Both the position numbers and the translations under genes were made by a program. The notes beneath the pieces were generated by a model that saw only the letters and a program-made list of their open reading frames with translations, did not search any database and was not told the DNA's origin. Shown piece after piece: positions 35,461 through 40,116 of a stretch of 64,000 nt of DNA. This DNA is from Escherichia coli (lineage in GTDB: Bacteria; Pseudomonadota; Gammaproteobacteria; Enterobacterales; Enterobacteriaceae): NCBI RefSeq assembly GCF_003018255.1, contig NZ_CP027440.1; one strand, given 5' to 3'. Positions within the stretch are counted from its first letter, which is position 1. The number at the start of each line of letters is the position of its first letter.

Positions 35461-37104
35461 TTATGCCGTCCGGGCAACGGCATCACGCGAAGCAGCATCG
35501 CGCTCTTCGCCTGTCAGCTCGCTAAGTTGCCCGTTGCGCATTTCCAGCAGGCGGTCGGCGTGGATAAAGTAATGATCATCATGACTGATGGCGAAAATAG
35601 TTTTACCCATCTCCTGCATCAGCGGCAGCAGCACCTGATAAAACTCACGACGGAAGTGTGGATCCTGATCCGCCGCCCATTCATCCAGCAGGATAATATC
35701 GCGTTCTTCTGCCAGCGCCAGCAACAGCGCCACGCGTTTTTTCTGCCCTTTTGATAACTTCAGGTTAACAATACGCCCGTTGCTTAACTCAAGCTTATGA
35801 GCCATTTTCAGCTGCGCCAGCCACTTCTCAACCAGTTGCGGGTTAGCGGGTTGCCCCTCCGGCCCCAGCAGTTGATCAAACAGCCAGACATCGGTAAACA
35901 CTGCCGAAAACAGTTTTCGATAATCTTCCGGTTGTTCGCCGCTGACAGGTTTGCCATCCAGCAAGATTTCGCCATTTTGTGGCTGGTACAAGCCCGTCAG
36001 CAACATCGCCAGCGTCGATTTTCCACTACCGTTGCCACCAATCAGAAACAGCAGCTCGCCACGTTTGATGGTGAGGTTAATTGGCCCAACGGAAAACGCG
36101 TTATCCTGATAGCTAAACGTCACGTTACGCAGCTCCAGCGTTTGCCAGTTGGGAAAAGCCTGCGGGCGCGGAAACTCTGCTTTGAAAGGCGCGAGCGCGA
36201 ATTTGTTCAGCTTGTTAAACGCCACCTGCGCCGTCAGCAGCGTCGGCAATGCGCCAACCGCCGAAAGCAGCGGCGTACGCAGGAATAACAGCGTCAACGA
36301 ATAGGTCGCAGCAACGTTGGTATCAGCCCAACCGAGACTGTTCGCCATCCAGAACACCAGGCCGATAGCGCCCAGCATCATGATGTTTGACCAGTTCACG
36401 GCACTAAGATGGAAGGTGTCTGCGCGAATAATATGATGGCGATACTCTTGCGCATCAGGAATGTAGAGGTTGTTAAACACATACTCGGCGCGTTCACGGT
36501 TCAGAGTCAGCTCTTTGCGCCCTTCGAGTACAGTTTGAAAATCCGTGTACAGCTTATCTTCGGTTTCACGCAGGGTCGCCATATGTTTGTACACCCGCGC
36601 CACCAGCACAAAACCGCCCCAGATGGTGACTGCCATCCAGATAGCCGTTACCAGCAACATTTTGCCCGACAGCATCCACAAATACGCCGCTGAACCGATA
36701 GTGAGAATGATCCCCTGCACCAGTTCCGGCAGACGCACAAAAGCAATGGTGATATTGCGCACATCGCTGGTTAATCCCGCCAGCAACGAGGCGCTACCGA
36801 GTTGTTCAATGCGCTCGACGTGAGTATCGAGAATCCGCTTGATAAATTCACTACGCAGTCGGTAAACGAAGTGATGCCCCAAAGTGGTGAGCGCCAGTTG
36901 CGATCCGAGAGTGACGGCCATCAACAGCAGCAATAACCCCAGAAACTCCGGCAATACCAGCAGACTGGTATCCGCCGTTTCGATAAGGCGCTGATTGATA
37001 AAAGCAATTAAGCCAATGCCTAATGCCGCACTGGCGAGGCTTAGCGCCATCACACTGATAAATGGCCAGCGATACTGCCGCCAGACAAGTACAAGAAGTT
37101 CCAT
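35461..37104 (-). CDS. yojI: ABC exporter, fused permease/ATPase (microcin J25 efflux)
   Basis: 547 aa; N-terminal TM domain; Walker [10 protein letters not shown] and [12 protein letters not shown] signature. Confidence 0.9.
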
Positions 37105-37179
37105 GCAGAAAACCCGGACAATGAATTACAGCCCGCAGTTTAAACATCTTCGCGCGCACAGCAATAATAATTCTTATTT

Positions 37180-37830
37180 TTATTCTTTTTTACCTGCCTG
37201 ACGGAATGTCAGGTTGTAGCGGCAGTCGGTGGTGAGTGGATGAAACCCCGCTTTCAACGGTTGAATACCGTGATAAAACAGCCGCGATTCACCGCCCCAT
37301 ACCACCACATCGCCATGTTCCAGCAACAATCTTTTTAGCGGATCATTTCGTTTCAGGCCGCCAAATTGAAAAATCGCGGGTAAGCCCAGAGAAACAGAAA
37401 CAATCGGCGCGCGCAGATCCGGTTCGTCTTTATCCTGATGCAGCGACAGTTTCGCGCCAGGAGCGTAGCGGTTGATAAGACAAGCATCTGGCTGGAAATC
37501 TGGATAGCCCGCCGCCGTAGCCGCACGTTGACATAAATGATGAAAACTCTGCGGCATGGCGGGCCACGGTTTATTTGTTTGCGGATCAATGGGCGAATAG
37601 AGATAACCCTGCCGATGGGTGGTCCAGCCCAGACGCCCGCAGTTGGTCATCGCCACCGACATGGTATATCCGCCTGGAGTGACCATCTGGCGAAACGGCG
37701 ACTGGCTGGCAACGTCATTAATATCGCGGATCAGTTGCTCCGCAGCGTTAAAAGCAAAACGGTGCAAAATCACCGCTCCAGCCGCCAGTGGTTCTTGCCA
37801 CGGTTCAGCATCGGCAAACAGATCCAACAT
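37180..37830 (-). CDS. alkB: Fe(II)/2-oxoglutarate-dependent DNA/RNA demethylase AlkB
   Basis: 216 aa; immediately downstream of ada. Confidence 0.95.
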   Translation of the reverse strand: MLDLFADAEPWQEPLAAGAVILHRFAFNAAEQLIRDINDVASQSPFRQMVTPGGYTMSVAMTNCGRLGWTTHRQGYLYSPIDPQTNKPWPAMPQSFHHLCQRAATAAGYPDFQPDACLINRYAPGAKLSLHQDKDEPDLRAPIVSVSLGLPAIFQFGGLKRNDPLKRLLLEHGDVVVWGGESRLFYHGIQPLKAGFHPLTTDCRYNLTFRQAGKKE

Positions 37831-38894
37831 TACCTCTCCTCATTCTCAGCTTCGCGGCGCAGCAGTTGCGCTTTACGCGACACGCCCCAGCGGTAACCGG
37901 AAAGTGTGCCATCACCACGGACCACCCGATGACAAGGTATAACGATAGCTAGCTTGTTGGCGGCACAGGCGCTGGCAACGGCCCGTACCGCTTTCGGTTT
38001 GCCAATGGCGTTAGCCAGTTGCTGATAACTGACGGTTTCACCGCAAGGTATCGTGCGCAGTGCCTGCCAGACTTGTTGCTGAAAAGCAGTGCCGCGAATG
38101 TCCAGTGGTAACGTCAGCGGCGTATCGCGTTGATTGAGGCTGGCGATCACTTCACGCACATGTTGCTGAAACGTAAGATCGGCAGGCGCGCTGTCGGCAG
38201 CGGGAAACATCTGCTGTAACTCGCTGATTAGTGTCGCGTCATCATCGCCCAGTAATATCGCGCAAATCCCCCGCTCACTTTCTGCCACCAGGCAACGGCC
38301 CAGCTCACAATCAGCCAGCGCGTAACGCACCGCCAGATTTTCGCCACCGTGACGGAATTGTTTAGCCGTCATGCCCAGCGTTTCGTCGGCTTTGCGGTAG
38401 TAACTGCTGCTGTCGGGGAATCCGGCGTTAAGAATAGATGTAGTCACGCTCTCCCCTTTCGCCAGCAATTCGCGCAAACGGCGAGCGCGCCAGGCCTGTT
38501 GCCAGGCTTTAGGCGTCATTCCGGTAGTCGCTTTAAACAACCGATGCAAATGAAATGGACTCATCGCCACCTGGTCGGCTAAGGCTTCCAGCGTTACAGG
38601 CGTTTCCTGTTCCAGAAGTCGGCAGGCGTGGGTAATTTTATCAAGGCGATGTTGCAGGGGATTGGCTTTGTCTGGCTGACAACGTTTGCAGGGACGAAAG
38701 CCAGCGGCAAGCGCCTCGCTGGCATTTGCGTAGAAGGAGACATTTTCCCGCAAGGCATGTCTGGCGCGGCAAGACGGACGGCAAAAGATACCCGTGGTGC
38801 GCACGGCGAAAACGAATTCGCCGTCGGCGTTCGGGTCGCGGGCTAAGACAGATTGCCAGCGTTGATCGTCAGTTAAACATGTGGCGTTTTTCAT
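37830..38894 (-). CDS. ada: bifunctional Ada regulator / O6-methylguanine-DNA methyltransferase
   Basis: 354 aa; N-terminal Cys-rich methyl-phosphotriester domain, AraC-type HTH, C-terminal active site IPCHRVV. Confidence 0.95.
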   Translation of the reverse strand: MKNATCLTDDQRWQSVLARDPNADGEFVFAVRTTGIFCRPSCRARHALRENVSFYANASEALAAGFRPCKRCQPDKANPLQHRLDKITHACRLLEQETPVTLEALADQVAMSPFHLHRLFKATTGMTPKAWQQAWRARRLRELLAKGESVTTSILNAGFPDSSSYYRKADETLGMTAKQFRHGGENLAVRYALADCELGRCLVAESERGICAILLGDDDATLISELQQMFPAADSAPADLTFQQHVREVIASLNQRDTPLTLPLDIRGTAFQQQVWQALRTIPCGETVSYQQLANAIGKPKAVRAVASACAANKLAIVIPCHRVVRGDGTLSGYRWGVSRKAQLLRREAENEER

Positions 38895-38961
38895 AATCAG
38901 CTCCCTGGTTAAGGATAGCCGTTAGTCTGCCCGGTCACCATCGCGCAAAAACCAACAATCT

Positions 38962-38974
38962 TGCGCTTTAATTT
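38962..38974 (-). promoter_or_regulatory. Ada box of the ada-alkB promoter
   Basis: On the ada strand AAATTAAAGCGCA (AAANNAAAGCGCA consensus) about 70 bp upstream of ada start; overlaps the apbE stop codon. Confidence 0.6.
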
Positions 38975-40023
38975 TTTTCGCTGATAAGGAAGCTTTTAAA
39001 CTGCGGCGACATCCAGGTTTTAAAATTATCGCCCTCTTTGGTGATCATGTAGACCGCCAGTCCTTCCCGGCGAACAACCTCTTTGGCTTTCTCCGGCCCG
39101 AGCACCATTAAGCCAGTATCCCAGGCATCGGCTTCCAGCGCCGTCGGGGCAATCACCGTCACGGATACGAGATTGTGTTCGATAGGACGCCCGGTTTGCG
39201 GATCGATAACATGAGAAAGACGTTTGCCGTCCAGTTCGTAATAGTTACGGTAGCTGCCAGAGGTACTAATCCCATGACCGTTGATATCCACCACGGCCTG
39301 AACCGCGTTTTCTTTATCGGTTGGCTTTTGAATCGCTACCCGCCACGGCTTGCCAGCACCGTTCATACCACGGCTGTTCAGCGCGCCGCCCACCGACACC
39401 AGATAGCGGGAAATCCCTTCCTGCTCCATCAAGCGTGCCAGGTGATCCGCCGCATAACCTTCGCCGACGGTGGAGAGATCGACATATAAATCCGGCAGGT
39501 CTTTTTGCAGATATTGCTGATGCGACTGATTAATGACCGTCAGGTGCTGTAAGCCGGTTTTGGCTTTCATCGCATCGATCTGTTCCTGGCTCGGAATTTG
39601 AACCGGTTGTTGTTCCGGACCAAAGCCCCACAGATTCACCAGCGGCCCGACGGTTATATCCATCGCGCCATCGGTCTTCGCGCCAATGCGCAGCGAGGTA
39701 GTGACGATATCGGCCATCGCTTCACTTACCGGCCACGGCGACAAACTTTGCGAGTCGTTAAAGCGCATCAGCGCGGAATCTTTTTTATAGGTCGAAAGCA
39801 GCTGATCGTCAGCGTCCAGTTGGGTCTGAATCTTTTCTTTAAGTTCGGCACTGCGTTTGGCGTCAATGCCCGGGATGCTGGCACGCCAGAAGGTACCCAT
39901 GGTTTTGCCTTCAAGAACGGTAACTTCAGTAGCGTGGGTTTTGGCGGGTTGTGGTTTTTGATCGCAACCAACAAAGAAGAGCGCGGCAGCCAGCAGTGCC
40001 ACGCGGGTAAAGCTTATTTCCAT
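38968..40023 (-). CDS. apbE: FAD:protein FMN transferase lipoprotein ApbE
   Basis: 351 aa; lipoprotein signal (AALFFVGC); ApbE/Ftp family. Confidence 0.9.
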   Translation of the reverse strand: MEISFTRVALLAAALFFVGCDQKPQPAKTHATEVTVLEGKTMGTFWRASIPGIDAKRSAELKEKIQTQLDADDQLLSTYKKDSALMRFNDSQSLSPWPVSEAMADIVTTSLRIGAKTDGAMDITVGPLVNLWGFGPEQQPVQIPSQEQIDAMKAKTGLQHLTVINQSHQQYLQKDLPDLYVDLSTVGEGYAADHLARLMEQEGISRYLVSVGGALNSRGMNGAGKPWRVAIQKPTDKENAVQAVVDINGHGISTSGSYRNYYELDGKRLSHVIDPQTGRPIEHNLVSVTVIAPTALEADAWDTGLMVLGPEKAKEVVRREGLAVYMITKEGDNFKTWMSPQFKSFLISEKN

Positions 40024-40093: not shown

Positions 40094-40116
40094 AAAAAAG
40101 GGCCCGCAGGCCCTTT
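40094..40116 (-). terminator. rho-independent terminator of ompC
   Basis: gggcc-cgca-ggccc hairpin flanked by A-run (U-run on the ompC strand). Confidence 0.75.

Follow-up and report, generated by a model that had tools for sequence, protein, structure and literature searches.

The segment at positions 38962–38974 of the window (the whole 64,000-nt stretch of Escherichia coli DNA analysed here) is almost certainly, judging by its sequence and surroundings, the Ada operator of the ada-alkB promoter, P_ada, and this identification is both secure and already known, as the Ada-binding block is base-for-base identical to that of E. coli K-12, where the operator has been defined experimentally. Its overlap with the end of the upstream gene, apbE, is likewise an ordinary and already-known arrangement; what the comparison of related genomes seems to add is a small new observation, namely, that throughout the family the operator and the stop codon of apbE are interlocked. 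The sequence features, gene identities, identity to K-12, conservation and absence of terminators reported below were computed, and the statements on Ada binding, on the A and B boxes and on induction come from the literature.

Locus and Genome Sample

The genes ompC, apbE (named ftp in K-12), ada, alkB and yojI follow one another on the minus strand of the window, with the identities of apbE, ada and alkB assigned by NCBIfam equivalog models and the RefSeq annotation of an identical genome in agreement (Table 1). ApbE is a periplasmic flavin transferase, encoded by a gene unrelated to ada and separated from it by an intergenic gap of 73 bp, and the start codon of alkB overlaps the ada stop by 1 nt (TAATG). 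The encoded Ada retains all of the residues C38, C42, C69, C72, R45, R71, F114, H115, R118 and C321, so that both methyl acceptors (Cys38 and Cys321) and the DNA-contacting residues are intact, and it matches the N-Ada structures deposited as PDB entries 1ZGW and 1U8B. In a K-12 tiling array, ada, alkB and yojI form a single MNNG-induced segment (PMC6505713), and a terminator-like site is absent from the alkB-yojI gap of the window (37104..37180); yojI, a microcin J25 efflux gene, may thus be co-induced by alkylation damage.

A 301-nt query spanning the site found the locus in 5421 of the 5426 complete E. coli genomes, several of which were 100% identical to it. A megablast search with a 49-nt query for the box matched 3846 of the 5426 and missed ~1600, probably for technical reasons, and that count was left unused. 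For the wider comparison, one genome was taken per species, which resulted in 80 Enterobacteriaceae loci whose Ada proteins are 65 to 97% identical.

Table 1. Features of the apbE-ada-alkB locus in window coordinates.
Feature	Position	Strand	Basis or remark
ompC intrinsic terminator, strong, upstream of apbE	40097..40116	-	
apbE (ftp) CDS, FAD:protein FMN transferase	38968..40023	-	NF007774, 725 bits
Conserved block GAAAAAAATTAAAGCGCAAGATTGTTGGTTTTT	38947..38979	-	Conservation; the T-run "-35 box" (38952..38947) forms its 3' end
Classical 13-nt Ada box AAATTAAAGCGCA	38962..38974	-	Sole match in the window; identical to K-12
A box AAT, last sense codon of apbE (Asn351)	38971..38973	-	Definition from PMC4437013, PMC3788762
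apbE stop TAA, within the 6-nt A/B spacer	38968..38970	-	
B box GCAA	38961..38964	-	Preceded by C (38965)
T-run, putative "-35 box"	38947..38952	-	
Likely -10 hexamer CAGACT	38924..38929	-	C, A and final T invariant across the family
Putative ada transcription start, A of CTATCC, 22 nt before ATG	38916	-	Inferred
ada Shine-Dalgarno AGGGAG	38901..38906	-	
ada CDS, 354 aa	37830..38894	-	NF011964, 749 bits
alkB CDS	37180..37830	-	NCBIfam AlkB model, 380 bits

The Operator and Its Overlap with apbE

Read on the ada strand, 38974..38962 gives AAATTAAAGCGCA, just as the preliminary description of this DNA had proposed for an Ada regulon box, and its further claims of a distance of about 70 bp to the ada start and of an overlap with the apbE stop codon hold as well, with 68 nt lying between the 3' end of the box and the ATG (38894) and the TAA sitting inside the box. 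The related statement that the promoter is embedded in the 3' end of apbE stands for the upstream edge only: the A box, the A-tract preceding it and half of the A/B spacer fall within the apbE open reading frame, whereas the B box, together with the -35, the -10, the start site and the leader, falls in the intergenic gap. Expressed in bases, 7 of the 13 box positions (one base of a Lys codon, AAT and TAA) belong to apbE, whose end reads ...AGC GAA AAA AAT TAA, and 6 are intergenic; of the conserved Ada-binding block as a whole, ~12 nt lie within the open reading frame.

The sequence AAAGCGCA is the Ada box of the ada promoter as given in the literature, according to which the A box, AAT, is contacted by R45 and R71 and the B box, GCAA, by F114, H115 and R118, with 6 nt between the two (PMC3788762, PMC4437013, PMC6505713). 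This currently accepted contact set, AAT-N6-GCAA, is present in the window as AATTAAAGCGCAA at 38961..38973 on the minus strand, meaning that the operator in current terms is 38973..38961, one base beyond the interval that had been described initially. The apbE stop makes up the first half of the A/B spacer, and the B box begins 3 nt past it.

Within the 3' end of ada (37866..37875, minus strand), ~35 nt before the alkB ATG, TAAAGCGCAA occurs a second time and matches 10 of the 13 operator positions, lacking the A box; Ada-box-like fragments upstream of E. coli alkB have been mentioned (PMC3788762). Furthermore, an inverted repeat of 8 bp with an 8-nt loop, GCGCAAGA ... TTTTGCGC (38966..38959 and 38950..38943, minus strand), links the B box to the T-run/-35 region.

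Conservation across the Enterobacteriaceae

The gene order apbE-ada-alkB was found in all 80 species loci, and in 79 of them AAT-TAA-N3-GCAA occurs in the same register; the apbE-ada gap, once start codons are correctly assigned, spans 72 to 83 nt in 79 of the 80 species. Of 81 loci, 80 end apbE with AAT as the last sense codon and one with CAT, AAC being used in none, and the stop is TAA in all 81, while other synonymous sites of the gene are scrambled (two conserved Phe positions use TTC and TTT at 41:40 and 57:23, and a conserved Leu is encoded by five different codons). The sole CAT (His) is seen in Enterobacter asburiae INSAq146 (L033), where the ATT core of the A/T stretch is retained. 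Across the 75 distinct junctions, no variation occurs in ATTAAA, GCAAG (G19 C20 A21 A22 G23, from the B box on), two Ts of the downstream block, CA...T (-10 element), TA..CT (start site), AG (Shine-Dalgarno sequence) and the ATG.

An exact match to the classical 13-mer is confined to Escherichia and a handful of further genera, and the 13-mer therefore does not define the conserved site; most genera carry AAATTAAAAAGCAAG at its position, and most read AAATTAAAAAGCAAGATTGCGGGTTTTT. The definition conserved in the family is AAT-N6-GCAA plus the following ~14 nt (GATTGCGGGTTTTT) and not the older AAAGCGCA box.

Two loci of the sample deserve separate mention. Citrobacter sedlakii (L024) has a ~150-nt, highly structured insertion in the ada leader, between the promoter and the ATG, and the 250-nt junction RNA containing it folds at -83 kcal/mol; as the Ada box of this locus stays fused to the apbE stop, the operator travels with the end of apbE, not with ada. 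An assembly titled Chryseobacterium sp. 18061 (L076) contains an Enterobacteriaceae-type apbE-ada-alkB locus whose junction is nearly identical to that of the Pluralibacter group (L067, L070), and is probably mislabelled or contaminated.

Comparison with K-12 and with the alkA and aidB Operators

The apbE-ada junction of the window is 97% identical to that of K-12, and everything from the A-tract through the T-run is the same base for base. P_ada of K-12 agrees with that of the window in its flanking genes, its distance from the ATG, its A and B boxes and the C before the B box, and the two differ at three intergenic positions, all of them downstream (-27 T>C, -10 C>A and -5 A>C), none of which amounts to a difference in kind. 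As these three positions belong to the core promoter, however, promoter strength could differ from that in K-12. The -10 change (38926) gives CAGACT in the window versus CAGCCT in K-12 (L002), the former being closer to the TATAAT consensus and common to all of the other Escherichia species sampled (L003-L008), and the ada core promoter may, therefore, be weaker in the K-12 reference strain; the -27 T>C change is shared with one further locus (L006), and -5 A>C is private to the window.

The alkA and aidB operators are, like that of ada, reported to contain AAT (A box) and GCAA (B box) as the target of methylated Ada (PMC4437013), but have an A in place of the C before the B box, and Ada binds them ~10-fold more weakly; this C has been offered as the reason for the ~10-fold stronger binding of Ada to its own promoter (PMC4437013). 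Their distances from the respective start sites also differ from that of ada, and neither of the two lies in the window. We know of no description of either one as overlapping a neighbouring coding sequence.

Core Promoter and Transcription Start

Sakumi and Sekiguchi reportedly found in 1989 that methylated Ada protects -63 to -31, that its binding is lost with C>G at -47, a position within AAAGCGCA, and that binding of the polymerase is lost with T>G at -34, a position of the -35 box. We infer that 38916 is the only position fitting both of these mutant coordinates (-47 and -34), and with +1 placed there, the footprint of -63..-31 corresponds to 38979..38947, which is exactly the family-conserved block. 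With the K-12 start taken to lie 22 nt upstream of the ATG, the box occupies -57..-45, and a start located elsewhere, which would have spoken against the preliminary description, was thus not what emerged. The K-12 tiling array provides independent support, as the boundary between its apbE-level segment and its MNNG-induced ada-alkB-yojI segment falls ~20 nt before the ATG, ~2 nt from 38916 (PMC6505713). The supplementary data published with SMRT-Cappable-seq, Cappable-seq and Term-seq contain no entry for ada, apbE or the relevant coordinates, and a text search of the literature returned nothing relevant on the promoter sequence or on apbE together with ada.

The hexamer TATCCT (38917..38912) was considered as an Ada-dependent -10 element, given the invariance of its T, A, C and T, and rejected: it would move the start ~11 nt downstream, which is incompatible with the reported mutants (-47 inside AAAGCGCA and -34 in the -35 box) and with a footprint covering the A box. 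The putative start site is itself spanned by GCTATCCTTAA (38909..38919, minus strand), in which T, A, C and T at 38917, 38916, 38913 and 38912 are invariant in 75 of 75 junctions and which agrees at 10 of 11 positions with KCTAYRCTTAA, the consensus of a sigma-S type -10 element; this motif could be a second promoter (basal or stationary-phase) or a constraint on the start site.

Proposed Operation of P_ada

Taken together with the literature, the arrangement would work as follows. Upon repairing a methylphosphotriester, Ada would become methylated at Cys38 and, in this form, bind AAT-N6-GCAA at 38973..38961; methylated Ada at the ada promoter requires the RNA polymerase alpha subunit's C-terminal domain and sigma (PMC3788762, PMC4437013, PMC6505713), and together they would bring the polymerase to a weak core promoter made up of the T-run as -35 and CAGACT as -10. 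Transcription would then start ~22 nt before the ada ATG and give an ada-alkB mRNA that, when induced, would continue into yojI. An E. coli fragment covering -100..-1 relative to the ATG conferred strong MMS and MNNG induction on GFP in a reporter plasmid (PMC3788762). The distance from the end of apbE to ada is a mere 73 bp, so that the final sense codon of apbE serves as the A box at the same time and its stop falls into the operator spacer; this overlap, a reflection of how tightly the genes are packed, now holds both elements to a last codon AAT and a stop TAA.

Alternative Readings: Chance Occurrence and Read-Through from apbE

That the site might be nothing but a chance A/T-rich motif at a gene end, with no regulatory role, deserves next to no credence, even though motif statistics do lend it something. 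The consensus AAANNAAAGCGCA has a single exact match on both strands of the 64-kb window, at 38962..38974 (minus strand), against 0.14 expected, and at least one match turned up in 13 of 100 shuffles, so that the 13-mer match, taken alone, is only mildly unlikely; the 8-mer core was found 9 times (5.1 expected) and the minimal AAT-N6-GCAA 7 times (15 expected). Since such short cores are not rare, the case for the site rests on position and homology and not on the motif statistics. These are precisely what has already refuted the chance reading: the site is identical to the experimentally defined K-12 operator, A11-A16 and G19-G23 do not vary among 75 distinct junctions whose flanking intergenic sequence has diverged, and AAT and TAA are frozen at synonymous sites. 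Another possibility, and one that concerns the consequences of the overlap and not the identity of the operator, is that of a functional coupling, in which apbE transcripts run through the Ada box into ada-alkB and seed the positive feedback with Ada-independent basal expression; as a whole, we consider it rather unlikely. In the same vein, an elongating polymerase and bound methylated Ada might interfere with each other. Since the ompC terminator is strong, apbE must have its own promoter and be the sole source of read-through into the Ada box, and read-through into ada, a reasonable suggestion of the preliminary description, is plausible because no intrinsic terminator (a G+C-rich hairpin followed by a U-run) was found between 38967 and 38895; the structure predicted for the junction RNA is no more stable than those of shuffled controls (z = -0.31), and the hairpin GCGCAAGA/UUUUGCGC, considered as a terminator candidate, was rejected, as was the GCGCAAGA ... 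TTTTGCGC repeat as such, because a U-tail is absent. The K-12 tiling array further shows an apbE-level, MNNG-independent signal that continues beyond the apbE stop for ~54 nt, ending ~20 nt short of the ada ATG (PMC6505713 supplement), which indicates that apbE transcripts do cross the Ada box, and the gap length held at 72 to 83 nt in nearly all of the species would also accord with coupling, as would the need for an Ada-independent basal source of about one Ada molecule per cell, whose origin has been left unspecified (PMC6818145). On the other hand, basal Ada amounts to only ~1 to 3 molecules per cell (PMC4437013, PMC6818145) despite the clear apbE signal on the array, and productive read-through must therefore be small; the plasmid-borne -100..-1 fragment works without apbE transcription, and the array boundary is uninformative on the region beyond it. 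A sigma-70-like match, TCTACA-17-GATAAT (9/12), is present at 39025..39053 (minus strand) in the 3' end of apbE, ~130 nt before ada, and could be another source of Ada-independent transcripts, although such matches occur at chance frequency (1 found versus 0.6 expected).

Possible Fold-Back of Read-Through RNA onto the ada Shine-Dalgarno Sequence

If apbE transcripts do reach ada, they might still be kept silent, and for the window we regard it as quite unlikely, yet worth setting out, that the ada Shine-Dalgarno sequence is sequestered by a segment located upstream of the P_ada start, leaving read-through RNA untranslated and P_ada mRNA, from which this segment is missing, translated. The E. 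coli candidate pairs CGGCUAUCCU (38921..38912) with AGGGAGCUG (38906..38898), with the start site inside the 5' arm. The minimum free energy fold of the window junction has the Shine-Dalgarno sequence paired with CGGCU.UCCU, and opening the Shine-Dalgarno sequence costs 6.6 kcal/mol in the read-through RNA versus 4.0 in the P_ada RNA, but the pairing in the window is no better than chance (shuffle test p = 0.48, with an own-pair energy ranking 13 of 20), and the Escherichia junctions contain no informative variation. The wider sample is more favourable in part. When the junctions were folded one by one, those of many genera had the Shine-Dalgarno sequence paired with a segment of the -35/-10 spacer. 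Over 20 clades, complementarity of the segment to its own Shine-Dalgarno sequence is -11.4 kcal/mol versus -9.7 kcal/mol cross-clade (permutation p = 1.5e-4), the Shine-Dalgarno sequence costs more to open in read-through than in P_ada RNA in 19 of the 20, and helices 10 to 14 bp long, at -16 to -23 kcal/mol, are predicted in Kluyvera, Pseudocitrobacter and Klebsiella with the -10 element and start in the loop, accompanied in Kluyvera by one clear compensatory U-A to C-G change. Against this, RNAalifold returned no common structure and no pairs over the whole family, shuffle tests, run with a short context and mononucleotide shuffles, gave p < 0.05 in only 5 of the 20 clades (Fisher p = 0.0013), pairing of the Shine-Dalgarno sequence with bases upstream of it exceeds 50% in only 9 of the 20, and for the other genera the start site was presumed from the alignment.

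The helices in question are found in L027, L035, L036, L039, L047, L051 and L071 (Kluyvera), in L054, L055 and L060 (Pseudocitrobacter) and in L079 and L082 (Klebsiella), with a 5' arm ~25-50 nt and a 3' arm ~5-20 nt upstream of the ada ATG. The 5' arm reads UUCCUCCUUUU or ACGGACUUC in Kluyvera or Klebsiella, the compensatory pair in Kluyvera is CCTCCTTTT/AAAAGGAGG versus CCTCCCTTT/AAAGGGAGG, and Klebsiella and Raoultella display a G-C / G.U / A-U series at the pairing.

Similar arrangements are reportedly known from mobile elements, as fold-back inhibition of transposase translation on read-through transcripts is said to have been described for IS10 (Davis, Simons and Kleckner, 1985) and IS50 (Krebs and Reznikoff, 1986). 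In both cases, a segment upstream of the gene's own start pairs with the ribosome-binding site and silences externally initiated RNA only, and the predicted helices of Kluyvera, Pseudocitrobacter and Klebsiella share this geometry, although the gene concerned is a chromosomal regulator and not a transposase; the helix predicted for E. coli, in contrast, is short, split by the start site and no better than chance. It would be a rather unlikely generalization that the P_ada core promoter doubles as a translational insulator in the Enterobacteriaceae, with the -35/-10 spacer encoding an anti-Shine-Dalgarno segment which, lying before the aligned start site, read-through RNA alone would carry. The evidence for it is suggestive for Kluyvera, Pseudocitrobacter, Klebsiella, Raoultella and Pluralibacter and absent for E. 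coli, and fold-back is, accordingly, offered as a hypothesis for other genera and not as a property of the window. Were it true, the ada ribosome-binding site would be locked on apbE read-through RNA and basal Ada held near one molecule per cell, so that the self-activating response could not fire spuriously, and there would be a mechanism for the low, noisy basal Ada that underlies cell-to-cell variation in alkylation mutagenesis.

Conclusions

The operator itself is textbook material, and confirming it here adds nothing to the biology of the adaptive response. Its interlock with the end of apbE, as it appears from the family-wide comparison in every species sampled, nevertheless offers a clean natural case in which a regulatory site limits the coding sequence next to it (AAT and never AAC as the last codon, and always TAA as the stop), and may help explain why the spacing between apbE and ada is so fixed throughout the Enterobacteriaceae.
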